From the IMG/VR virus record IMGVR_UViG_3300018079_000007: a stretch of DNA of 49,369 nt; one strand, given 5' to 3'. The notes under the pieces are model-generated. The model had not been told where the DNA came from and did no database searches. It worked only from the letters and a program-made list of their open reading frames with translations. The stretch is from a virus. Positions 2,625-49,369 of the stretch are shown one piece after another. Made by a program: the position numbers and the translations under genes. Position 1 is the first letter of the stretch. Every line of letters starts with the position of its first letter.

Positions 2625-3365
2625 ATGCCTTACGATATTGCCTTACGCGATCCCAGCCTGAGCGGAGCGAGCATTGTTTTTGATGATGTCGTCTTCGCCA
2701 ACCTGATCGCCACTCAAGAAACGTTTTATAGCGCCACCGTAATCTATATCGTATCCGCCAACTTCATCGCTTCCTCAGAGACATTCTTCAATGCCGGCGT
2801 CACCCAAACGGGCGGCGGCGATACCGTCAGCGCGAATTTTATCGCCGCCGAAGAAACTTTTTACAACGCCAGTGTCACGCCGGGGGCAGTGTCGATTGCG
2901 GCTGATTTTATCGCTTCCGCTGAGACCTTTTATAATGCGACAGTTACACCCGGCGCGGTGTCGATCCAGGCGAATTTTATCGCCGCCGTCGAAATCTTTT
3001 ACGAGGCCGCTATCCAGACCGGCACAGCAATCAACGCCAACTTCATCGCTTCCGAAGAGACCTTTTATCTGGCGGCGGTGCAGCCCGGCGCAGTCAATGT
3101 CGCGACCCACTTCATCCCCTCCGGGGAACAATTTTACACGGCAGCAGTAGTCGTCGGCGCGGTGTCAATCAACGCCAACTTCATCGCTTCCGAAGAGACC
3201 TTTTATCTGGCGGCGATTGCCGGTGGAGCCGTAGTCGAGCTGGCGGGCAGCGGTGCGGTTACGATCCTGTCGGCAGGTGGTGGCAATATCGATATTTTAT
3301 CGGCGGGCGGTGGCGGTATCGTGCTGCTCTCCATCGGTGAGGGCGAGTTGGAGGTGATTCCATGA
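2625..3365 (+). CDS. Tandem-repeat protein, 246 aa (about 8 units of roughly 23 aa, consensus ANFIASEETFYxAxVxPGAVSIx)
   Basis: The repeat is visible in the translation and in the DNA. The C-terminus carries short ILSAGGG repeats. Confidence 0.7.
   Translation: MPYDIALRDPSLSGASIVFDDVVFANLIATQETFYSATVIYIVSANFIASSETFFNAGVTQTGGGDTVSANFIAAEETFYNASVTPGAVSIAADFIASAETFYNATVTPGAVSIQANFIAAVEIFYEAAIQTGTAINANFIASEETFYLAAVQPGAVNVATHFIPSGEQFYTAAVVVGAVSINANFIASEETFYLAAIAGGAVVELAGSGAVTILSAGGGNIDILSAGGGGIVLLSIGEGELEVIP
2697..3240 (+). repeat. In-frame tandem repeat array, period about 69 bp, about 8 copies
   Basis: GCCAACTTCATCGCTTCCGAAGAGACCTTTTATCTGGCGGCG occurs twice exactly (about 3034 and 3174). The other units are diverged copies. 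Confidence 0.85.
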
Positions 3366-3673
3366 CTCAATATCTGGTGGGGCAAACGAAACGCATTCAG
3401 GATACGTTCACCAATGCCGCTGGGGTGGTGGCCGATCCGACGACGATCCAGCTTCGCATCGGCGTATACCTGGCAGATGGCTCGGTGGACACGCTGCAAA
3501 CCTACACTTATGCCGCCGCGCAGCTCATCAAAGCCAGCACCGGCGTCTATTACAAGGATTACACCTTTGTCCAGGCCGGGCGGCATGTGTTGGAATTCAC
3601 CACCAGCGGCACGCCGACGACGGTGGACATCCTGGAAATTGATGTGGCGACGCCCTTGACGTGGGTGGCGTAA
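3362..3673 (+). CDS. Hypothetical protein, 103 aa
   Basis: ATGA overlap with the upstream stop and TAATG overlap with the downstream start. Confidence 0.6.
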   Translation: MTQYLVGQTKRIQDTFTNAAGVVADPTTIQLRIGVYLADGSVDTLQTYTYAAAQLIKASTGVYYKDYTFVQAGRHVLEFTTSGTPTTVDILEIDVATPLTWVA

Positions 3674-4764
3674 TGCAGGTTATTGGCAGCAACCGGCCCC
3701 TGGTAATCGCCCAGGCGGGGATGCGCCGTGATAGCACCCGCCTGCTGCGCACGGCAACCCTAAAGGCGCTCGGCACGCTGCTGGCTTATACTGGCGCGGA
3801 TGGCCGGATTCAGGAGCGCTTTGAGCGCCGGGTACAGACCAGTGTCGGCCAAACGATCAGCGACCTGTTTACCGGAGGCGATAACCGCTCCGCCTTCGCC
3901 GAGGACGGTGTGACGGCGTTGGCACCCTACCCGCGCGCGCTCAACTACTGGATCGCCTTTGCCACCTATCAGGCTGTGAAGCAGCAGGAAAATTGGCTGC
4001 GGCGGCATCTGCCGGAGGATGTGTATCACTTCCTGCGCCGGGGACGGCGGACGGTGAGCGAGATCAGCGCCGAGGGTTTGACCGGCATGATCCCGGCGCA
4101 GATTGACCCGCTGCGGCAGTGGGTGCCGCCGCACCGCTGGACGGATGAGCGCGGCTACCGGCTGTCGGATCGCATCTGGCGGACGGACACGGAGACGCGG
4201 CGTAAGATCGACGAGTTGCTGGCGCGCGGCGTCCGTGTCGGCCAATCGTCGTTGAACCTCTCGGCAGCGCTGGAAGCCTATTTACTGCCGGGGCGTAGCG
4301 GCATCCGTACCCTGAAGCCGTATGGATCACGTTACCAGCCGGGCGGCGCATCCTTTGATGCCATGCGCCTGAGCCGGACGGAGATCAGCCACACCTTTAA
4401 TGAAGCCGCGCTCATCAGCGCTCAGATGAATCCGTTTGTGGATCGCATCGACGTGGCGCGCTCGGCTAATGGCGACCCGACCTGCGCCATTTGCCCGCAG
4501 CACGCCACCATCGGCATCAGCGGCGAACGGATCCGGCCACCCTATTCGGTTTACAGCGCCCGAATCGGACCGTTTCATCCGCATTGTCGGTGCCATGTCC
4601 GGCCTGTCGTGGTCGAGGACACAGCGGGTGTGATCGCCGAGTTACGGGCGCTGATCGAAAGCGGCGAAGACATCTATTTGAACCCGGCGGATGACTGGGA
4701 TTTCCTGATCTGGCTCATCGGGCCTGCCCTGGCCGAGTTACTGCGGGAATTGATGGCGGCGTGA
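3673..4764 (+). CDS. Minor head / head morphogenesis protein, SPP1 gp7 (Mu F)-like
   Basis: C-terminal motif GPFHPHCRCHVRPV matches the HPxCRC signature of gp7/Mu F-type proteins. The ATG at 3673 overlaps the upstream TAA. The ORF track's GTG at 3661 is an alternative start. Confidence 0.7.
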   Translation: MQVIGSNRPLVIAQAGMRRDSTRLLRTATLKALGTLLAYTGADGRIQERFERRVQTSVGQTISDLFTGGDNRSAFAEDGVTALAPYPRALNYWIAFATYQAVKQQENWLRRHLPEDVYHFLRRGRRTVSEISAEGLTGMIPAQIDPLRQWVPPHRWTDERGYRLSDRIWRTDTETRRKIDELLARGVRVGQSSLNLSAALEAYLLPGRSGIRTLKPYGSRYQPGGASFDAMRLSRTEISHTFNEAALISAQMNPFVDRIDVARSANGDPTCAICPQHATIGISGERIRPPYSVYSARIGPFHPHCRCHVRPVVVEDTAGVIAELRALIESGEDIYLNPADDWDFLIWLIGPALAELLRELMAA

Positions 4765-5288: not shown

Positions 5289-5370
5289 TGTGCTATAATA
5301 CAAAATATATGAAATAAACAGGCGCGGCCTGTATACCCTCTCTTGGGGTGTGCAGGTCGCGTTTTCGTTT
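5289..5370 (+). promoter_or_regulatory. Cassette A: extended -10 promoter motif TGTGCTATAAT (5289..5299) followed by hairpin (arms 5323..5331 / 5353..5361) and T-run 5362..5370
   Basis: Read directly from the sequence. It shares motif and architecture with copies at 13992, 16269, 22983 and 45060. Confidence 0.6.
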
Positions 5371-12743: not shown

Positions 12744-13189
12744 TGGCAAGCAAGGAAGCTGCGATCAAAGCTGCGCTGACCGGCAACGCGCCCTGGGTGG
12801 CGCTGGTGACGGGTGGTACCTTCCTGTTTGACGAGTTGGGGACATTGGGATTGACGCCGGAGAGCGCTGAAGCAGCGGGTTGTTACGATGCCGACGGCAA
12901 GCTGGAACTGACGGCGGTGCTGACCTTTGACACCAATACCGAAGCCGAGATCCTGACCAGTGAAAGGCAATTTTTCCGCATCTGGTATTTTCATCATGAC
13001 AGTTACAGTCTGATCCGGCAGGCGCGCCGGAAAGCCAAAGACCTGCTGGATCGGCAGCAGGTGACGGCGGACAATGAAGGGCGACCCCTCATGCGCTGGG
13101 TCGATGACATCCGCGAGTTCACCGAGGACGACCTGGGCGGCGCACTGGCTGCGGCAAGCCGCTATTTTGTGCAGTTGCGGCGGCGGTAA
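12743..13189 (+). CDS. Candidate tail terminator / tail completion protein, 148 aa
   Basis: It is the last small structural ORF before the tail tube module. The call is positional. Confidence 0.4.
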   Translation: MASKEAAIKAALTGNAPWVALVTGGTFLFDELGTLGLTPESAEAAGCYDADGKLELTAVLTFDTNTEAEILTSERQFFRIWYFHHDSYSLIRQARRKAKDLLDRQQVTADNEGRPLMRWVDDIREFTEDDLGGALAAASRYFVQLRRR

Positions 13190-13199
13190 AGCGAAAATC

Positions 13200-13254
13200 T
13201 GTGCTATAATTGAGGGAGAAAAGGAAACTCCGACGGTGCGCAAACACCTCGGAG
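13200..13254 (+). promoter_or_regulatory. Homing-endonuclease leader 1: TGTGCTATAAT (13200..13210) plus 5' UTR hairpin CTCCGA...TCGGAG (13228..13254)
   Basis: Read from the sequence. It is homologous to the leader at 15365..15410. Confidence 0.55.
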
Positions 13255-13274
13255 CATGAGCAACCATAAGAAGG

Positions 13275-13967
13275 ATGGCTACTGTGAGTAATGATACTCC
13301 AATTTCAGGCATATATGTTATCCTCAACGTAAAAACCGGCAAAGTCTACATTGGGCAAACGCAGGATTTTCGCAGGCGGTGGCACAAACATAAGACCTAT
13401 TTAAAGGGCGGTTATCACGAAAATCGACACCTGCAACATGCTTGGAATAGATATGGTGCGGATGCGTTCCGTTTTCAAAAACTAGAATATTGCGCTATTG
13501 AACAATTAGACGAACGAGAACAACACTTCCTTGACATCTACATGGCGAAAGGAATGTGTTACAACATCGCCAAAGATGTACAGGCATCAGGGCGCGGACT
13601 AATTCGCAGCGAGGAGACACGGCGAAAACTTAGCGAAGCCGTCATGGGTAAAAATAACCCCAACTTTGGGAAACCCAAAAGCGAAGAGACACGGCGTAAA
13701 ATGAGTGATGCGCAAAAGGGACGAATCCTGAGTGATGACCATGTGCGCAAGCTGAGTGAAGCCGCTAGAAAACGTCCTCCTGCAAGCGAAGAAACGCGCC
13801 GCAAATTGAGCGAGGCTGGCAAAGGTAAAATTCAAAGCGAAGAAACATGCCGGAAGAAAAGTGAACAGCGAAAAGGCGTGATATTTAGTGAAGAACATAA
13901 ACGGAAATTGAGCGAAGGTGCAAAACGGCGTTACGCAAAGGCGCGAAAGCTGTCTGAGGATGAATAA
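13275..13967 (+). CDS. GIY-YIG homing endonuclease with NUMOD3-type repeats
   Basis: GIYVILNVKTGKVYIGQT at the N-terminus. Five SEETRRKLSEA-like repeats sit in the C-terminal half. The gene is lower in GC than its flanks and lies between structural genes. Confidence 0.85.
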   Translation: MATVSNDTPISGIYVILNVKTGKVYIGQTQDFRRRWHKHKTYLKGGYHENRHLQHAWNRYGADAFRFQKLEYCAIEQLDEREQHFLDIYMAKGMCYNIAKDVQASGRGLIRSEETRRKLSEAVMGKNNPNFGKPKSEETRRKMSDAQKGRILSDDHVRKLSEAARKRPPASEETRRKLSEAGKGKIQSEETCRKKSEQRKGVIFSEEHKRKLSEGAKRRYAKARKLSEDE

Positions 13968-13991
13968 AGTGTTTCTTTAGAACCGAATACT

Positions 13992-14056
13992 TGTGCTATA
14001 ATATTATCAATAACAGGGCGCGGCCCGTCGAGAGACGAGCCGCGCTTTTCGTTTTT
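13992..14056 (+). promoter_or_regulatory. Cassette B: TGTGCTATAAT (13992..14002), hairpin GCGCGGC/GCCGCGC (14018..14045), T-run 14046..14056
   Basis: Read from the sequence. The hairpin is nearly identical to that of cassette C. Confidence 0.6.
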
Positions 14057-14130
14057 AGAGTGAAAGGCAAATCATCATTCCTGGGAGCAGCGAATTCGGC
14101 GAAGTATCCTACACTTTAACCGATTTACTG

Positions 14131-14679
14131 GTGGCAGCTTACAATATTACTGCCAATACTTATGGAACCCCTATCTCGGCGGCCATCGGGCAGACGTTGG
14201 AAGTTGACCCGGAACACGACACGGATAAGCTGCCGGGTTACGGCGTAACCATGCGCCTGCTGTCGGTGGCGCGCGGGGCCAAAATCAAAATCGGTATGGG
14301 CGGTGTCGATGTCGATTTCCTGGCCGTCACCGCCGGGGTGTCGAATTACACCAGCAACCTGACGCCCAACCAGCGGCGGCGTACCCGTTTCCCGGCGGGT
14401 GGCGCAGGTTTGCCCTACTTCGGCGCGATTGGCTTGACGCCTACCGACGACGGCGGCGTGGCGGCCATCGGCTTGCAGGGGTGTAAGTTGGATAAGTATC
14501 CCAAATACACCGCCGACGGCAAAACCAACAAATTCAATATGTCCGAGATCGAGGGTTATGCCATCCCGGTTGCCATCAGCAGTGTGTTGTACCTGATGAC
14601 CGTGCGCACCTACGAAACGGCGGCGCTGTGGACAGCCCCGGCCAGTGGCGCCGACTTCCTGGCTTTCTTCGCGGCATAA
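14131..14679 (+). CDS. Major tail (tube) protein candidate, 182 aa
   Basis: Its size and its position upstream of the chaperone and tape measure genes fit a tube protein. The GTG start has a weak RBS, so the start is uncertain. Confidence 0.55.
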   Translation: MAAYNITANTYGTPISAAIGQTLEVDPEHDTDKLPGYGVTMRLLSVARGAKIKIGMGGVDVDFLAVTAGVSNYTSNLTPNQRRRTRFPAGGAGLPYFGAIGLTPTDDGGVAAIGLQGCKLDKYPKYTADGKTNKFNMSEIEGYAIPVAISSVLYLMTVRTYETAALWTAPASGADFLAFFAA

Positions 14680-14689
14680 GGAGCGATAC

Positions 14690-15139
14690 ATGGTTACACC
14701 GATCAACGAATGGATGCCGCAGGCCGAAGAAATCACGCTGCCCAGTGGCAAGGTGGCGCTGCTGAAACGGCCTGACCTGGTGGCGATGATCTCCGGTGAT
14801 GGCGAAGTGCCGGATTTGCTGTCGAACCTGATCCTGGATATGACCCAGAACAACATGGGCCAGCGCCAGGAACTGACCATCGACAAAGAAACCCTGCCCC
14901 AGATCATGAAGTCGATGGACGTGATTGCCATCGCCTGTTTTGTTACGCCGAAATTGTGGACTAAGGATGCAGCCGAGGGCGAGTACATCCCGGTGGCCTG
15001 GGTGCCGTTCAACGACAAGGCGACGGTGATGGCCTGGGCGTTAGGGGGGCAGTACCAACCTGCCAAAACGTTTCCTCCAGAACCGAACGGCCACCTGGCA
15101 ACTGTACCGCCAATCGAGCCAGTTTCGGGAAAAACCTAG
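14690..15139 (+). CDS. Tail assembly chaperone candidate (gpG-like), 149 aa
   Basis: AAGGAG RBS 6 nt before the ATG at 14690. It lies between the tube and tape measure genes and is followed by an overlapping start-less ORF. Confidence 0.55.
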   Translation: MVTPINEWMPQAEEITLPSGKVALLKRPDLVAMISGDGEVPDLLSNLILDMTQNNMGQRQELTIDKETLPQIMKSMDVIAIACFVTPKLWTKDAAEGEYIPVAWVPFNDKATVMAWALGGQYQPAKTFPPEPNGHLATVPPIEPVSGKT

Positions 15140-15359
15140 CGCGATCTTCGGCATCCGCGACAATCATTGGTTAAGTTATCAATTTGATAACGCAGTTTTG
15201 CTTTTTGGCACCTGGGTACAGAACCGGCTGGATGCGCGGAACGATGATGGTAAGCCGAAGTATAGAAGTTTTGCGGCGGCGCTGGGTGAACCGGCGAAGC
15301 GGAAACCGATCAATGCGGGGCAGTTGGGCATGATGCCCGGCGTGAATTTTCGCGACTAA
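15045..15359 (+). CDS. Start-less ORF in the +1 frame overlapping the chaperone 3' end; candidate frameshift extension (gpT-like)
   Basis: The +1 frame is open for 105 codons, from the TAG at 15042..15044 to the TAA at 15357..15359. It has no ATG or GTG near its 5' end. Homopolymers G6 (15044..15049) and A5 (15130..15134) lie in the overlap. Confidence 0.4.
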   Translation, partial: GGSTNLPKRFLQNRTATWQLYRQSSQFREKPSAIFGIRDNHWLSYQFDNAVLLFGTWVQNRLDARNDDGKPKYRSFAAALGEPAKRKPINAGQLGMMPGVNFRD

Positions 15360-15364
15360 CGCGG

Positions 15365-15410
15365 TATAATAGAACAAATAAGTTACCCCTGCGTGCGACA
15401 ACACCAGGGG
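15365..15410 (+). promoter_or_regulatory. Homing-endonuclease leader 2: TATAAT (15365..15370) plus 5' UTR hairpin CCCCTG...CAGGGG (15386..15410)
   Basis: Read from the sequence. Its loop and downstream sequence are homologous to leader 1. Confidence 0.5.
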
Positions 15411-15430
15411 CTTGAGTATCCATTACAAGG

Positions 15431-16258
15431 ATGGCTACTGTGAATAATGATACCACACCCCTCAAGCGCTGCACGGGATGCCAACAGTGGAAACCCGCAA
15501 CACGGAAATATTTTCACAAACATAGCCAAACAAAAGATGGCTGCCGCCAACCGTGTATTGAGTGCCGCCATATTCAAAGCCTTGAAGATGGCGAAGCTGC
15601 GAATGAGCGCGCCCGTATATCCTGGGAGAAGCATAAAGATAGAGTGAATGCCGAGAGGCGCGCTCATCCCGAAAAGCATCGAGAACAAAGCAGATTGTGG
15701 CGTGCAGCGAATCGGGAAAGGGTTCGCAAAATTAAGCGTGATTGGTATTATGCGAACCGAAATAAGGTGCTTGCGGCGCAGAAAAAATATCAGGAAGCTA
15801 ACCCCGAAAAGGGGCAGGTGATTCGGCGGCGTCACTATTTACTTCACCCCGAAGCCTATAAATATCAGGCGCAAAAGGCCAAACATGAACGGCGGGCAAT
15901 TGAACGAAATTTAGGCAGCGATCTCACGGAAGATCAATGGAAACGCTGCTTGGATTATTGGGGCGGATGCTGTGCAGTATGCGGGCAGATTGCAACCGGA
16001 CTCTGGACAACAATAGCAATGGATCATTGGATCGCTATCAAAGACCCGCGACCCGATAACCCCGGCACAACAGTTGGGAACATAGTTCCCTTATGTCACG
16101 GGAAGAGAGGGATTCCAGCGGGCAAATCCTGTTGCAACCAATCCAAAAGCAATAAAGACCCGGCTGCGTGGCTAATCGAGCGCCTCGGCAAACGGAAAGC
16201 AAAGCGGAAATTAGCCGAGATCGAAGCCTATTTTGAGTGGGTGAAAAGTCAACCGTAA
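15431..16258 (+). CDS. HNH homing endonuclease, 275 aa
   Basis: C-terminal CAVCGQ...AMDHWIAIKD...GNIVPLCHG (H-N-H) and an N-terminal Cys-rich zinc-finger-like segment. It is free-standing between structural genes. Confidence 0.8.
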   Translation: MATVNNDTTPLKRCTGCQQWKPATRKYFHKHSQTKDGCRQPCIECRHIQSLEDGEAANERARISWEKHKDRVNAERRAHPEKHREQSRLWRAANRERVRKIKRDWYYANRNKVLAAQKKYQEANPEKGQVIRRRHYLLHPEAYKYQAQKAKHERRAIERNLGSDLTEDQWKRCLDYWGGCCAVCGQIATGLWTTIAMDHWIAIKDPRPDNPGTTVGNIVPLCHGKRGIPAGKSCCNQSKSNKDPAAWLIERLGKRKAKRKLAEIEAYFEWVKSQP

Positions 16259-16268
16259 CCCAAACATC

Positions 16269-16331
16269 TGTGCTACAATTAAAGCATCCACAGGGCGCGG
16301 CCCGTCGAAAGACGAGGCCGCGTTTTTATTT
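16269..16331 (+). promoter_or_regulatory. Cassette C: TGTGCTACAAT (16269..16279), hairpin CGCGGCC/GGCCGCG (16296..16322), T-run 16323..16331
   Basis: Read from the sequence. Confidence 0.6.
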
Positions 16332-16340
16332 GGGGTGCGT

Positions 16341-19010
16341 ATGGATTTTGGCAGTGAGGGCTATTCGTTAGGTACGGCTTATGGCCGAATAGTCTTAAGC
16401 CTTGATGACTCGGCGGTTCAGAACGCGCGCCAATCCATCGGCGGCGGCTTGCAAGACCTGGGCGGCGCAATCTCCAGCATCGGCTCCAGCCTGACGCAGT
16501 TAACCGCGCCGGTGCTGGCCTTCGGCCTGACCGGGCTGAAAGCTGCCAGTGATTTCGATACCGTCATCAACCAGATACGAGTCTTTGGCGAACTCGGCCC
16601 GCAAGACCTGGAACGGGTGCGGCAGGCGGCACTCAAGTGGGGCGCGGATACCAAGTTTAGTGCGTTGGATGCCAGCGCCGGGATGCTCGACCTGCTCAAG
16701 AGTGGTCAATCGGTTGAGCAGGCGATGGCGACCATGCCAGCCGTCCTCAATTTGGCGGGCGCGGGCAACCTGAATTTGGCACAAGCGGCAGGAATCACCA
16801 GTTCGGCTTTGGCACAGTTCAGGTTGAAGGCTGAGGATGCTGGACGGGTAGCCGACGCGCTGTCACGGGCAGCCAATGCCAGCCGCGCCGAGGTTGGCGA
16901 TCTCGGACTAGCGATGGGTAATGTGGGGCCAGTTGCCGCACAGTACGGACTCAGTATCGAGGATGCCAGCGCGACATTAGCCGTCTTTGCTCAGAACGGC
17001 ATTATGGGCGCAGAAGGCGGAACACTCCTTAAAACTGTCCTGACCCAAATGACCCGTCCCACTGAAGAAGCGGCTGGCGCATGGAAAAAACTTGGTCTTA
17101 GTCTGTACGATGCCAATGGCAATACCCGCGATTTCAACACGGTTCTAGGCGAACTCGATACTGCCCTCGATAAGCTGCCCGTCGAAGAACAAAATGAAAT
17201 CATGTACCAATTGGCAGGCAGCTTCGGCATCACCGGGCTGAATGCTTTACGGGCAGCCGGTGGTATCGGCGCGATGCGCGACCAAATGGCAGCCGCGCCG
17301 GATGCCGCGACGATTGCCGCTGAGTTCATGAACACCTTCGCCGGTAAGGTCGAGTCGCTGACGGGATCGATCCAGACTTTACAGATCGAAGCCCTGACGC
17401 CGCTGATGAATGATGTCCTGGCGCCGATGGTGGACAAGCTCATCGGCGTGGTCAACAGCCTGACAGCCTGGATACAAGCCAACCCGGAACTGGCAGGGCA
17501 AATTACGCAAATCCTGGCCGTGCTGGTGGTGGTCGGGCCAACACTCCTGATTATTGGCAAAGCAGTTTCGGCAGTGGGCGGCCTGTTCAGCGGCCTGGGG
17601 ACGATCCTGGGGCTGGTGCTGTCGCCCATCGGCCTGATTATCGGCGCGGCGGCGCTGTTGTTTCTGGCCTTCCAAACAAATTTCCTGGGTATCCGTGACA
17701 TCCTGCAACCGGTGATTGAAACGATTGTAAACGCCGTGCAATTGGCGGTAATGGGCTTTAGTAGTTTTACCGACATTTTGAATGATACCGGCAGCGTGGT
17801 AGATGCCATTGTTGGATCACTTTCCAGCGGAATTGCTAACTTCCTGGTCGGGTTGGGCGTGATTCAAAATCCCGAACAGTTTTTAGCCTTCCGTCAAGCA
17901 ATTGAAGATGCACTGGGAGGTGTAGTCAGTTTCATTCAAGAAGTAGTCATCCCCATTGTCGAGCGCTTCGTCGGCCTGCTGGTTGACTTCTGGACAGCGA
18001 TCCAGCCGGGGTTACAGGCGTTCGCCAACTGGGTGATCGCGGACGTGCTGCCGCTGGTGGTGGACTTCTTCAATACCATCTTGCGCCCGGCGGTTGAAGG
18101 CATTGTCAATATGCTGATGGACATCTGGGAAGTCGTCAGCCCGGCGCTGTCGGCCTTATTCAACTGGTTCATGGCCGAGGGACTGCCCTGGATTACCGAT
18201 GCGCTGCGCTGGTTCATGGAGAATGTATTACAGCCTGCCATCACTCTGCTTCAGGGAATATGGGAAGCGGTGGGGCCGGTGCTGCAAGATGTGTTTGACT
18301 GGTTCGTGACGACGGCGCTGCCCAAAATTAACGAGGCGGTGGTCTGGTTCAAAGACAATGTATTACAGCCCGCCGTCGATATTCTGGAAGGCTTATGGAT
18401 CGTTATCGAGCCGGTGTTAGCCAAAGTCTACGACTGGTTTGTGACGACGGCGCTGCCCAAAATTAACGAGGCGGTGGTCTGGTTCAAAGACAATATCATC
18501 ACCCCACTTGTCACGCTCATCAGCGGCTTATGGGAAGCTATCCGGCCATCGCTGGAAAAGGTCTATAACTGGTTCCGTGACAGCTTCCAATGGATTGGCG
18601 ACACCTTTATCAAACCAGTGGTCGATTTCATTCAAAAAATTATTGACGGCGTAGGCAATGCCCTGCGGGAATTGGAGAAACTCGGCGGCGGCGGCGGTGT
18701 ATCGGTCGAGGGGTCGGGTGGCACGCCAACGGCGGCCAGTCTCGGTATCCAGTTTCGCGACTCTGGCGGGGCGGGCATGGCCGATGTGCCCTATCTGATT
18801 GGGCGTGGCGCGCAGCCGGAACTCTTTATCCCCAACAGCAACGGCACTTTTATCCCGAATGCCGACAAGCTGCTGGGCGCGGGTGGCGGTGGCGGCGACA
18901 CCATCATCCTGCAAGTGCCGATTGAAATGCTGCGGGATGAGCCGAACTTAGAACGCAACGCCAGAACCTTCGCCGAGAAATTTGCCGACGCGAAAAGGAG
19001 TATGGGATGA
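16341..19010 (+). CDS. Tape measure protein, 889 aa
   Basis: It is the longest late gene and lies after the chaperone. It has hydrophobic segments and 45-aa internal repeats. The ATG at 16341 has better RBS spacing than the GTG at 16335. Confidence 0.85.
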   Translation: MDFGSEGYSLGTAYGRIVLSLDDSAVQNARQSIGGGLQDLGGAISSIGSSLTQLTAPVLAFGLTGLKAASDFDTVINQIRVFGELGPQDLERVRQAALKWGADTKFSALDASAGMLDLLKSGQSVEQAMATMPAVLNLAGAGNLNLAQAAGITSSALAQFRLKAEDAGRVADALSRAANASRAEVGDLGLAMGNVGPVAAQYGLSIEDASATLAVFAQNGIMGAEGGTLLKTVLTQMTRPTEEAAGAWKKLGLSLYDANGNTRDFNTVLGELDTALDKLPVEEQNEIMYQLAGSFGITGLNALRAAGGIGAMRDQMAAAPDAATIAAEFMNTFAGKVESLTGSIQTLQIEALTPLMNDVLAPMVDKLIGVVNSLTAWIQANPELAGQITQILAVLVVVGPTLLIIGKAVSAVGGLFSGLGTILGLVLSPIGLIIGAAALLFLAFQTNFLGIRDILQPVIETIVNAVQLAVMGFSSFTDILNDTGSVVDAIVGSLSSGIANFLVGLGVIQNPEQFLAFRQAIEDALGGVVSFIQEVVIPIVERFVGLLVDFWTAIQPGLQAFANWVIADVLPLVVDFFNTILRPAVEGIVNMLMDIWEVVSPALSALFNWFMAEGLPWITDALRWFMENVLQPAITLLQGIWEAVGPVLQDVFDWFVTTALPKINEAVVWFKDNVLQPAVDILEGLWIVIEPVLAKVYDWFVTTALPKINEAVVWFKDNIITPLVTLISGLWEAIRPSLEKVYNWFRDSFQWIGDTFIKPVVDFIQKIIDGVGNALRELEKLGGGGGVSVEGSGGTPTAASLGIQFRDSGGAGMADVPYLIGRGAQPELFIPNSNGTFIPNADKLLGAGGGGGDTIILQVPIEMLRDEPNLERNARTFAEKFADAKRSMG
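17988..18650 (+). repeat. Five in-frame repeats of about 135 bp (45 aa) inside the tape measure gene
   Basis: 18297..18359 and 18432..18494 differ at 1 of 63 nt. The flanking units are diverged (W..V.P.L....NWF pattern). Confidence 0.8.
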
Positions 19011-22982: not shown

Positions 22983-23042
22983 TGTGCTACAATAAGAGGC
23001 ATAGGCGCGGCCTGTCGAAGGGGACAGACCGCGTTTTTATTT
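22983..23042 (+). promoter_or_regulatory. Cassette D: TGTGCTACAAT (22983..22993), hairpin (23006..23033, one C-A mismatch), T-run 23034..23042
   Basis: Read from the sequence. Confidence 0.55.
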
Positions 23043-45059: not shown

Positions 45060-45121
45060 TGTGCTATAATTTGTTACATGAAGTGAGCGCGGCTCCCGAT
45101 GGGGCGGCGCTTTTTTGTTTT
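45060..45121 (+). promoter_or_regulatory. Cassette E: TGTGCTATAAT (45060..45070), hairpin (45087..45110, one mismatch), T-run 45111..45121
   Basis: Read from the sequence. It lies immediately upstream of the small terminase gene. Confidence 0.55.
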
Positions 45122-49074: not shown

Positions 49075-49369
49075 CGCCGACTATTTTAGTCCCGCGCCAG
49101 CGCGAAGGTCAGGTGCGCCGCGAAGGGGCAAAGGTGCAAATCATCCTGGAGGGTCGGCTGCTGATGCAGCTTTCCTGGGAAAGCGCCCTGGCGCTGGCGA
49201 AGGAACTGCATCATGTGGCGAAGCTGGCCGAAGAGGAAGCCAACGCCGAAACCATCATTATAGATCAGGCGATTTTGCAACGTTCAGGTTTCCCGATTGG
49301 TCTCGTGACCCGCAGAGACATGGCGTTGCTGGCCGCCAACGAAGCCGCCTGGAACACAAAGCTGCGCCG
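49071..49369 (+). CDS. 5' part of a hypothetical protein gene that continues at 124..199 after the repeat is collapsed
   Basis: ATGA overlap at 49071. The ORF is open to the end of the window. Confidence 0.55.
   Translation, partial: MTPTILVPRQREGQVRREGAKVQIILEGRLLMQLSWESALALAKELHHVAKLAEEEANAETIIIDQAILQRSGFPIGLVTRRDMALLAANEAAWNTKLR
49247..49369 (+). repeat. Terminal direct repeat, copy 2 (identical to 1..123)
   Basis: Base-by-base comparison of both ends shows a 123/123 match. Confidence 0.95.

Follow-up and report, generated by a model that had tools for sequence, protein, structure and literature searches.

Why should two unrelated nuclease genes in one phage genome carry nearly the same leader? 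How phages restrain free-standing homing endonuclease genes (HEGs) is understood chiefly from T4, in which hairpins in the RNA conceal the ribosome-binding site (RBS). The window, the whole 49,369-nt stretch of IMG/VR record IMGVR_UViG_3300018079_000007 that was analysed, holds a GIY-YIG/NUMOD3 gene and an HNH-type gene that bracket major-tail and chaperone genes. Both genes, each with a promoter, a hairpin and the shared start region, lie where the original prediction had placed them.

13284..13967, plus strand: GIY-YIG/NUMOD3 homing endonuclease gene; likely start GTG 13284, earlier-called ATG 13275
15440..16258, plus strand: HNH-type (ββα-Me) endonuclease gene; likely start GTG 15440

The ORF at 13275-13967 matches NUMOD3 (PF07460, 2.3e-21) and GIY-YIG (PF01541, 6.9e-9) in Pfam, both above the curated cut-offs, as well as PHROG 314 'homing endonuclease' (1.4e-38); its predicted product belongs to the GIY-YIG homing endonuclease family, with a catalytic domain and a NUMOD3 DNA-binding module. 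The ORF at 15431-16258 has no Pfam match, even at E 10. Among PHROGs it matches PHROG 1035 'endonuclease VII' (9e-16) and PHROG 8660 'HNH endonuclease' (6.5e-8), a CxxC...DH...N...N..PLC...CN.SK motif was spotted by eye, and PF01844/PF14279 are present in its homologues. Between the two genes lie a major tail protein gene (PHROG 4971) and a gene for a DUF7391 protein, and the tape measure gene comes next. Endonuclease-free relatives, whose comparison had been proposed for defining the insertion sites, were found: both nuclease genes are absent at the same sites in the collinear relatives L020, L031/L032 and L033, an intergenic insertion polymorphism by which they are classed as putative free-standing HEGs.

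The start regions are almost the same sequence. The 27-mers at 13271-13297 and 15427-15453 are identical at 26 of 27 positions (0 matches expected by chance), and in both modules the ATG stands 20 nt past the end of the upstream hairpin (hairpin 1, described below). This nucleotide identity, previously described as a MATV(S/N)NDT stretch, held up; the ATG start did not, the GTG three codons downstream (13284 and 15440) probably being the true start. AAGGA lies 8 nt upstream of either GTG while the earlier-called ATG overlaps the Shine-Dalgarno (SD) sequence, and database versions of both nuclease proteins begin at that GTG.

Each leader opens with a sense promoter, and a cassette of promoter, hairpin and U-run follows each gene.

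13200..13210, plus strand: sense promoter of module 1, extended −10 TGTGCTATAAT (TATAAT 13205-13210), predicted TSS ~13217
15365..15370, plus strand: sense promoter of module 2, −10 TATAAT, predicted TSS ~15377
13992..14054, plus strand: P→T cassette with a second phage promoter copy, GC hairpin and U-run
16269..16331, plus strand: promoter TGTGCTACAAT, hairpin and U-run before the tape measure gene

The HEG-free relative L031 has the same flank, TAAAGCGAAAATCTGTGCTATAATT, as the module 1 promoter, and the P→T cassette at 13992..14054 is native to its site in HEG-free relatives; the GIY-YIG insert measures ~792 bp and is bounded by two phage promoter copies. The 16269..16331 cassette and 13983-14054 share 72% identity over 72 nt. 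At its site, HEG-free relatives have a terminator only, or nothing, which indicates that the whole of ~15360-16302 is insert. A promoter/terminator scanner misses all module sites because it requires a −35 element and unbulged stems.

A local duplication limited to this genome, which the original prediction had named as the finding that would speak against it, is not what was seen. A ~110-bp module stands upstream of nuclease genes on ~30 unrelated contigs of uncultivated phages from different samples. The genes behind it belong to the GIY-YIG, HNH and HNH_3/AP2 families, plus one DUF2726-like gene, a possible PD-(D/E)XK member. The leaders are homologous, and their presence on other endonuclease genes of unrelated families fits a module that is both regulatory and recombining, as had been proposed. 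The sense −10 lies 14-23 nt before hairpin 1 in 27 of 29 instances. All covariance model (CM) matches (E<0.03 in ~1.35 Mb) lie antisense to a nuclease gene, at its 5′ end, a placement subject to ascertainment bias since the loci were collected via nuclease homology; the eleven non-seed matches score 20-38 bits. Exact and IUPAC searches of IMG/VR with the 22-nt TIR gave 0 matches. A tube-protein search of IMG/VR and JGI metagenomes found no relatives of this phage, which were instead obtained with a promoter-hairpin pattern and from a protein database, and megablast of 11 kb against cultured phages found no match. Against the same phages, tblastn of both nucleases reached at most 37% identity, and the best N-terminal match, Xanthomonas phage MK21, is without the module. 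Of 160 loci with distant GIY-YIG homologues, drawn from metagenomes and genomes, only L256 has the module. An 11-codon uORF after hairpin 1 was rejected as a module part because it is confined to one subgroup.

Both modules hold the following candidate elements on the strand opposite to the genes.

13228..13254, minus strand: hairpin 1 of module 1, −15.3 kcal/mol; 6-bp outer stem, one bulge, 4-bp inner stem GGUG/CACC
15386..15410, minus strand: hairpin 1 of module 2, −14.7 kcal/mol
13259..13283, minus strand: hairpin 2 of module 1; 9-bp stem, anti-SD CCUUCUU in the loop (complement of 13268-13274)
15415..15439, minus strand: hairpin 2 of module 2; anti-SD loop CCUUGUA
13291..13296, minus strand: antisense −10 hexamer TATCAT of module 1, within codons 3-5 of the GIY-YIG gene; antisense TSS ~13284
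15447..15457, minus strand: antisense extended −10 TGTGGTATCAT of module 2, within codons 3-6 of the HNH-type gene
13217..13285, minus strand: predicted antisense RNA of module 1, about 66-69 nt; CM R2 72.3 bits, E 5e-14; −27.3 kcal/mol, z −5.2
15376..15441, minus strand: predicted antisense RNA of module 2; CM R2 64.3 bits, E 4e-12; −23.1 kcal/mol

Hairpin 1 is stable in both modules (0/200 shuffles fold as stably), and three pairs of its outer stem differ between them by compensatory changes. The earlier picture of a conserved loop between differing stems was thus right about the compensation, but the supposed loop contains an inner 3-4 bp stem with a bulged C, and the real loop is 6 nt. That hairpin 1 is a selected RNA structure is borne out by abundant covariation in the larger alignment (score for hairpin 1 alone, 0.566 vs 0.16). 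It is strand-symmetric, with 94.3% vs 93.4% canonical pairs, and should therefore form in the mRNA too. A second conserved hairpin, around the SD (13259-13283 and 15415-15439), had been overlooked. Taken together, the two hairpins show double changes in 19/19 pairs with 93.8% of cells paired, and their covariation score is 0.789 vs 0.224 for shuffles (0/500 reach 0.789) and at most 0.119 for slid controls, values read from CM alignments, which are biased towards the modelled structure. MAFFT with RNAalifold on the antisense RNAs recovered hairpin 1 only, because hairpin 2 was misaligned, whereas the CM-guided alignment recovers both. Each of the 24 predicted RNAs folds into two hairpins and carries the anti-SD in a loop. 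In module 1 the predicted RNA has its 5′ end at the start codon of the HEG, with hairpin 2 first, the linker next, then hairpin 1 and finally the U-tract. Rfam 15 gave no match in the window at the gathering threshold and only chance-level matches in 13100-16400 (E at least 0.37); YUNR U-turn motifs were, by inspection, not consistently present in the loops.

Hairpin 2 bears on which strand carries the selected RNA. Two of its pairs in module 1 read G·U in antisense and C·A, a mismatch, in sense. Across instances, canonical pairs make up 93% of the antisense version, which has 29 G·U pairs, and 78% of the sense version, which has 1 and is weak (−2 to −9 kcal/mol). In orientation-free MFE folding the antisense strand came out as the more stable one for 21/24 instances (Wilcoxon p=3e-4). 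The sequence beyond hairpin 1 is also oriented: on the antisense strand of module 1 the hairpin is followed by UUUCCUUUUCU (13227-13217), and the 12 nt after hairpin 1 contain a mean of 6.1 T antisense vs 2.5 sense (p=3e-5). As a U-tract follows only in the antisense direction, an intrinsic terminator would lie there; a GC-rich hairpin with a U-tract is the predicted form of a Rho-independent terminator in that orientation. The U-tracts are broken by C, and the conserved bulge and GRUG/CAYC inner stem are superfluous for a simple terminator. A backward −10 completes the geometry. Every instance (29/29, five of them found by CM alone) has a TAnnnT 3-6 nt ahead of where the modelled RNA begins, an invariance that is partly by construction, TAnnnT having been a search criterion, and that comes from instances sharing ancestry. 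At its free positions T, A and A predominate, and the encoded peptides vary (NDT, NHT, KYT, DST, DFT, IIT). Most antisense hexamers have 4-5/6 matches, an upstream TG is found in only ~1/3 and a −35 in none, so this promoter could be weak or silent. Contrary to the original view of the selected RNA as the mRNA leader, the G·U asymmetry, the U-tract orientation and the backward hexamer indicate an antisense transcript. What the sequences show for the module is conservation, covariation, strand asymmetry and promoter and terminator geometry. The shared MATV(S/N)NDT peptide loses its standing as a protein feature and appears instead as a by-product of the antisense promoter and the hairpin 2 stem. 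Annotators may take this as a caution: what was called an ATG start or an N-terminal "motif" in these genes would be a nucleic-acid signal, not a protein signal.

We consider it fairly probable that the module encodes a portable cis-antisense RNA limiting endonuclease translation. A ~110-bp 5′ control module with two convergent promoters would move with each endonuclease gene. Its near-consensus, often extended, −10 promoter would drive the endonuclease mRNA, and the weaker −10 hexamer in codons 3-5 a 65-75-nt antisense RNA. This RNA would begin at the start codon, show an anti-Shine-Dalgarno in the loop of its 5′ hairpin, then enter the bulged hairpin 1 and end on a U-tract abutting the sense promoter. 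Its complementarity to the translation initiation region is complete, and by pairing with the mRNA it would keep endonuclease translation low, an effect that might scale with genome copy number and extend across modules. The module has been exchanged between unrelated nuclease genes. That the RNA is made and represses translation we infer from the sequence features above. Both antisense RNAs of the window have an identical 5′ arm and anti-SD loop. The wider proposal, a widespread and hitherto undescribed antisense RNA family serving as a common currency of unrelated homing endonucleases, acting in trans by virtue of such shared parts and coupling several endonucleases per genome, is possible but doubtful. 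If true, a resident element might silence incoming or co-infecting elements with the same cassette, which would amount to copy-number sensing or immunity between the selfish genes of phages.

The same leader could instead be a sense-strand element of the 5′ UTR, working as a 5′ stabiliser, as a regulatory-protein site at the bulge and inner stem or by displaying the SD, with the backward hexamer incidental. Hairpin 1, equally canonical on both strands and stable in mRNA, would suit this role. Its conserved bulged C and sequence-conserved inner stem suggest protein recognition, the sense promoter is far nearer consensus than the antisense one, and seg43(25) of Aeromonas phage 25 has a stable hairpin just 5′ of its RBS that does not cover it (PMC2988022). 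We regard this reading as unlikely, however, as the 29 antisense G·U pairs of hairpin 2 become C·A mismatches in a weakly folded mRNA, and it leaves unexplained both why unrelated proteins all have TAnnnT fixed at codons 3-5 and the purine tract 5′ of hairpin 1, a U-tract only in antisense. T4-type control, given as an example in the original prediction, posits a structure including the promoter region that sequesters the initiation region of read-through RNA, so that only own-promoter transcripts are translated (I-TevI, segB, mobE); T4 precedents are on record (PMC2988022). AAGGA starts ~16 nt past the end of hairpin 1, which puts the RBS outside it. By inspection, the sense −10 (GGTATAAT) could pair almost fully with the codons 3-5 motif (ATnATACC), which would allow a long-range stem in read-through RNA. 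Yet when the transcript is lengthened by 60-200 nt at its 5′ end, the SD, the start codon and +7..+13 are predicted to be unpaired just as often or more often, and the hexamer-adjacent base does not covary with sense −13, being C whether −13 is G or C. Neither hairpin has both the SD and a pairing partner of the SD from 5′ of the TSS. The long-range pairing was rejected for want of covariation and of any accessibility effect, and such control is highly improbable here, the RBS lying outside hairpin 1 and 5′ extension not lowering predicted TIR accessibility.

Recombination or duplication alone, whether recent gene conversion within this genome or a PeSL-like motif without RNA function, accounts for several features: within the window the 5′ halves are 26/27 identical, the 3′ cassettes (72% over 72 nt) are more alike than the corresponding sites in relatives, and two phage promoter copies bound the GIY-YIG insert. 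The occurrence of the module on unrelated nuclease genes in fact makes recombination necessary. But neutral recombination motifs do not covary, whereas here, across ~30 contigs from different samples, stems differ in sequence and still pair, and the hairpin 1 stems of the window copies themselves differ by three compensatory pairs. The covariation refutes recombination as a complete explanation, in which capacity it is hardly probable; it survives only as the mode of spread.

The closest functional likeness of the proposed antisense RNA is to IS10/Tn10 RNA-OUT/RNA-IN (PMC5006887), where convergent promoters also span the translation initiation region of a selfish element's nuclease gene and a structured antisense RNA of ~69 nt, complementary to RBS and start, is predicted to block ribosome binding; the likeness suggests a copy-number-dependent (trans-acting) inhibition logic. 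Judged by sequence, the module has both hallmarks of this type of control, a putative outward promoter within the early codons that converges with the sense promoter, and a predicted stable, structured antisense RNA complementary to RBS and start codon. The differences are clear: the overlap here is the whole ~68-nt 5′ UTR against 35 nt in IS10 (PMC5006887), the module has two hairpins, an anti-SD in a loop and a separate terminator, and it accompanies several homing endonuclease families in phages rather than a transposase. The module bears no sequence or Rfam relationship to RNA-OUT. The account of IS200 art200 in PMC4513863 likewise describes a cis-encoded sRNA opposite the 5′ UTR of a mobile-element gene (tnpA), an analogy only, with a different element and a different RNA. 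In cyanophage S-PM2, experiments detected CfrI, an antisense RNA of ~225 nt that overlaps the free-standing HEG F-CphI and connects it with psbA (Millard et al. 2010, cited in PMC2984593); neither a shared structure nor a portable module is reported for it.

T4-type HEG hairpins (I-TevI/II/III, segB, Aeh1 mobE; PMC2988022) resemble the module in combining an own promoter and a conserved leader hairpin with tightly limited endonuclease synthesis. They contain the RBS, with the late promoter inside the hairpin (PMC2988022), while hairpin 1 here ends ~16 nt before the SD, which sits in the hairpin 2 loop; the module also lacks TIR sequestering on 5′ extension, and its strand signal is antisense. 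The T4 pattern of SD or start codon within the hairpin and inhibitory structure only in read-through RNA is not found. PeSL cassettes of T4-like phages, as described in PMC2839356 and PMC4122927, are terminator/early-promoter composites in hyperplastic regions of myoviruses, short regulatory motifs that flank variable genes at apparent exchange points. The module instead joins promoter, hairpins and opposing promoter, is nuclease-specific and has RNA covariation; going by those descriptions, element order and phage type differ, and only the exchange-point role is in common.

These comparisons point to a different, portable restraint in at least three nuclease families of uncultivated phages, an IS10-like antisense RNA set within the first codons. 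If true, this would be a new RNA family, would explain the puzzling "conserved N-terminal peptide" common to unrelated enzymes, and would offer a compact testable cassette (two promoters, two hairpins, ~110 bp) for the regulation and modular exchange of selfish genes. One of the contigs with a module was binned with a Leptolyngbyaceae cyanobacterium.

The window carries an exact 123-nt repeat at its termini (1–123 and 49247–49369) and is a circularly closed, complete phage genome of 49,246 bp. Two endonuclease genes, both lower in GC than their surroundings, enclose the genes for the major tail (tube) protein and a DUF7391 protein, with the tape measure gene following (Pfam, PHROGs).

Endonuclease genes in the window
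13275–13967, + strand: GIY-YIG/NUMOD3 endonuclease gene (Pfam; PHROG 'homing endonuclease')
15431–16258, + strand: HNH-type endonuclease gene (PHROGs 'endonuclease VII' and 'HNH endonuclease'; HNH-like motif)

ORF 15431–16258 gave no match in the Pfam search, and homologues of its protein carry PF01844/PF14279. Three NUMOD3 repeats lie within the GIY-YIG gene (13608–13816). Database versions of both proteins use a GTG start three codons past the ATG of the original prediction; because AAGGA is positioned 8 nt upstream of this codon in both genes, GTG 13284 and GTG 15440 are the more likely starts.

Each gene is preceded by a module of ~110 bp, comprising a sense promoter, two hairpins and a putative opposing antisense promoter. 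The claim that unrelated endonuclease genes share homologous leaders was borne out as described: in both, TATAAT is followed after 15–17 nt by a hairpin and, 20 nt further, by ATG. These hairpins fold at −15 kcal/mol, a stability reached in 0/200 shuffles, and a 27-mer that covers the ribosome-binding site (RBS) and the opening codons agrees at 26/27 positions, where chance would give 0 matches. An 11-codon upstream ORF (ATG...TAA, MSNHKKDGYCE) runs from the end of this hairpin into the first endonuclease codons (13256–13291); its counterpart in the HNH leader starts with TTG (15412–15447), and it also occurs in contig L232, being kept in this module subgroup only.

The predicted covariation of the leader hairpin (hairpin 1; 13228–13254 and 15386–15410) proved real. 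A covariance model (CM) of hairpin 1 alone recovered unseen instances at 23–33 bits, and the alignment displayed compensatory changes in 10/11 pairs with 88% of cells paired, giving a covariation score of 0.566 versus 0.16 for shuffles (0/500 reached it) and ≤0.154 for slid controls. Hairpin 2 covers the Shine-Dalgarno (SD) region (13259–13283 and 15415–15439). A two-hairpin CM was built from 11 sequences; in the alignment of 22 sequences, double changes occur in 19/19 pairs and 93.8% of cells pair, for a score of 0.789 versus 0.224 in shuffles (0/500); the alignments behind these values were fitted to the model, and the instances share ancestry. Computationally, both the module and the covariation of its structures are established.

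DNA was fetched around homologues of both endonuclease proteins. The similarity, which might have been limited to this genome, extends to many other contigs: across many samples, genes of the GIY-YIG and HNH types share the architecture TATAAT, 14–23 nt, bulged hairpin, 20–33 nt, SD and start. Among these instances, all collected through nuclease homology, the module lies 5′ of GIY-YIG, HNH, HNH_3/AP2 and one possible PD-(D/E)XK gene, the last a 198-aa ORF with a weak match to the PD-(D/E)XK-like DUF2726 (L137, 87–747). One 7-kb contig (L223) holds GIY-YIG, HNH and HNH_3/AP2 genes with one module each (1041–1636, 3269–3832 and 3925–4741). Since the module precedes such different nuclease genes, its distribution clearly points to spread by recombination. 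The contig that carries a 31-bit instance 5′ of a GIY-YIG gene (L256, 1427–1560) was binned with a Leptolyngbyaceae cyanobacterium MAG, which offers a hint, but only a hint, about the hosts these phages infect.

Several features argue that the selected RNA is the antisense one, a reading well supported at the sequence level. Over ~1.35 Mb, every match of the two-hairpin CM fell at a nuclease gene's 5′ end and ran antisense to that gene. In 29/29 instances a TAnnnT hexamer (TATCAT, TATGAT, TATACT, TAGAAT and others) stands 3–6 nt ahead of the point where the RNA model begins. TAnnnT served as a search criterion; 5 of the 29 instances were found by the CM alone. The hexamer is followed at a distance of exactly 7 nt by the start codon in most instances, and about a third have TG upstream of the hexamer. 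Homologues on other contigs often begin x-N/D/K-x-T-P/S/T, and the residues encoded across TAnnnT vary. In reverse complement, the sequence behind the 'conserved peptide' of the leaders is a −10 hexamer, which marks a putative backward-facing promoter.

The predicted antisense transcript folds into two hairpins in 24/24 instances, a 5′ hairpin with an anti-SD loop (CCUUC/CCUCC) and then hairpin 1. Within hairpin 2, the antisense strand has 29 G·U pairs versus 1 on the sense strand, and 93% versus 78% canonical pairing; in orientation-free folding it is the stabler strand in 21/24 instances (p = 3e-4). The 12 nt after hairpin 1 contain on average 6.1 T on the antisense and 2.5 on the sense strand (p = 3e-5). 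Because the U-rich tract follows on the antisense strand only, hairpin 1 would there be an intrinsic terminator ending just before the sense −10. Between the two modules of the window, the anti-SD loop, the 5′ arm and the antisense promoter are almost identical, yet hairpin 1 differs by compensatory changes; this combination would fit either partial gene conversion or selection that favours cross-regulation.

The model with the best support is a cis-antisense RNA of ~65–75 nt, with its 5′ end at the endonuclease start codon, full complementarity to the translation initiation region (TIR) and the anti-SD displayed in a loop. Such an RNA would pair with the endonuclease mRNA and limit its translation; we infer both its expression and the repression. 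The earlier suggestion of T4-type translational control, in which the RBS is sequestered in read-through transcripts, is not supported: the SD lies outside the stems of both hairpins, predicted TIR accessibility is not lowered by 5′ extension, and no covariation links the base beside the hexamer to the sense promoter. Hairpin 1 may act in the endonuclease mRNA, since it is strand-symmetric and its conserved bulge and GRUG/CAYC inner stem are superfluous for a plain terminator. The bulge is a single, nearly invariant base (13234 and 15392; C on the sense, G on the antisense strand), the inner stem is conserved in sequence and reads the same on both strands, and a conserved ACUCA linker joins the two hairpins; the terminator model leaves all three unexplained.

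For the cis-antisense model, the closest functional analogue is IS10 RNA-OUT/RNA-IN, in which a 69-nt antisense RNA complementary to the transposase TIR is produced from convergent pIN/pOUT promoters and exerts multicopy inhibition (PMC5006887). IS200 art200 is similar in principle (PMC4513863). T4-type endonuclease hairpins share the purpose but differ in anatomy (PMC2988022), and PeSLs share the exchange-point role with a different anatomy (PMC4122927). CfrI of cyanophage S-PM2, an antisense RNA of about 225 nt over a phage homing endonuclease gene, is reported to be of unknown function (PMC2984593). Our literature search found no other antisense RNA over such a gene and no description of such a module, and Rfam yielded no matching family. 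Cultured phages carry only distant homologues of the endonucleases, and the module is absent in the one examined.

IMG/VR relatives were retrieved by searching with the phage's promoter-hairpin motif, and the protein database yielded closer ones. Among them, L020, L031/L032 and L033 match the window collinearly but have neither endonuclease gene; the tube protein of L031/L032 is 85% identical to that of the window. At site 1, relatives have a single promoter-terminator cassette (TGTGCTATAAT, spacer, GC hairpin and U-run), and in the window the GIY-YIG unit is enclosed by two copies of the promoter TGTGCTATAAT, with the flank upstream of the 5′ copy identical to L031. At site 2, relatives have the terminator hairpin alone or no spacer at all, and therefore about 15360–16302 is insert in its entirety. 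Both genes behave as free-standing homing endonuclease genes.

The cassettes form a family in which an extended −10 promoter (TGTGCTAYAAT) is followed within 13–27 nt by a GC-rich hairpin and U-run.

Cassettes in the window (extended −10, hairpin and U-run)
5289–5360
13992–14054
16269–16331
22983–23040
45060–45105

With the promoter 5′ of the terminator, transcripts would end at ~+50 unless antiterminated. The TGTGCTAYAAT cassette also precedes the tube gene in L020, L031 and L033. No canonical start codon occurs in the window's tube gene at the homologues' start position (14056–14131): relatives with an ATG start align from ATT 14077 onward, which is preceded by an in-frame TAG (14056–58) and GAAAGG (14062–67). 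As starting at the first GTG (14131) would cost 18 conserved residues, translation may begin at a non-canonical ATT/ATC, a short way downstream of the inserted endonuclease gene. The head-tail genes of relatives of this phage are interspersed with acetyltransferase, DegT-type aminotransferase and glycosyltransferase genes (L031, 765–2814; L033, 122–3864; L224, 7649–8737), which are absent from those positions in the window. Seven diverged copies of a 60–75-nt repeat occupy a coding region at 2689–3215, and the tape measure gene contains three diverged 47-nt repeats (18124–18575) with start-to-start spacings of 135 and 270 nt.
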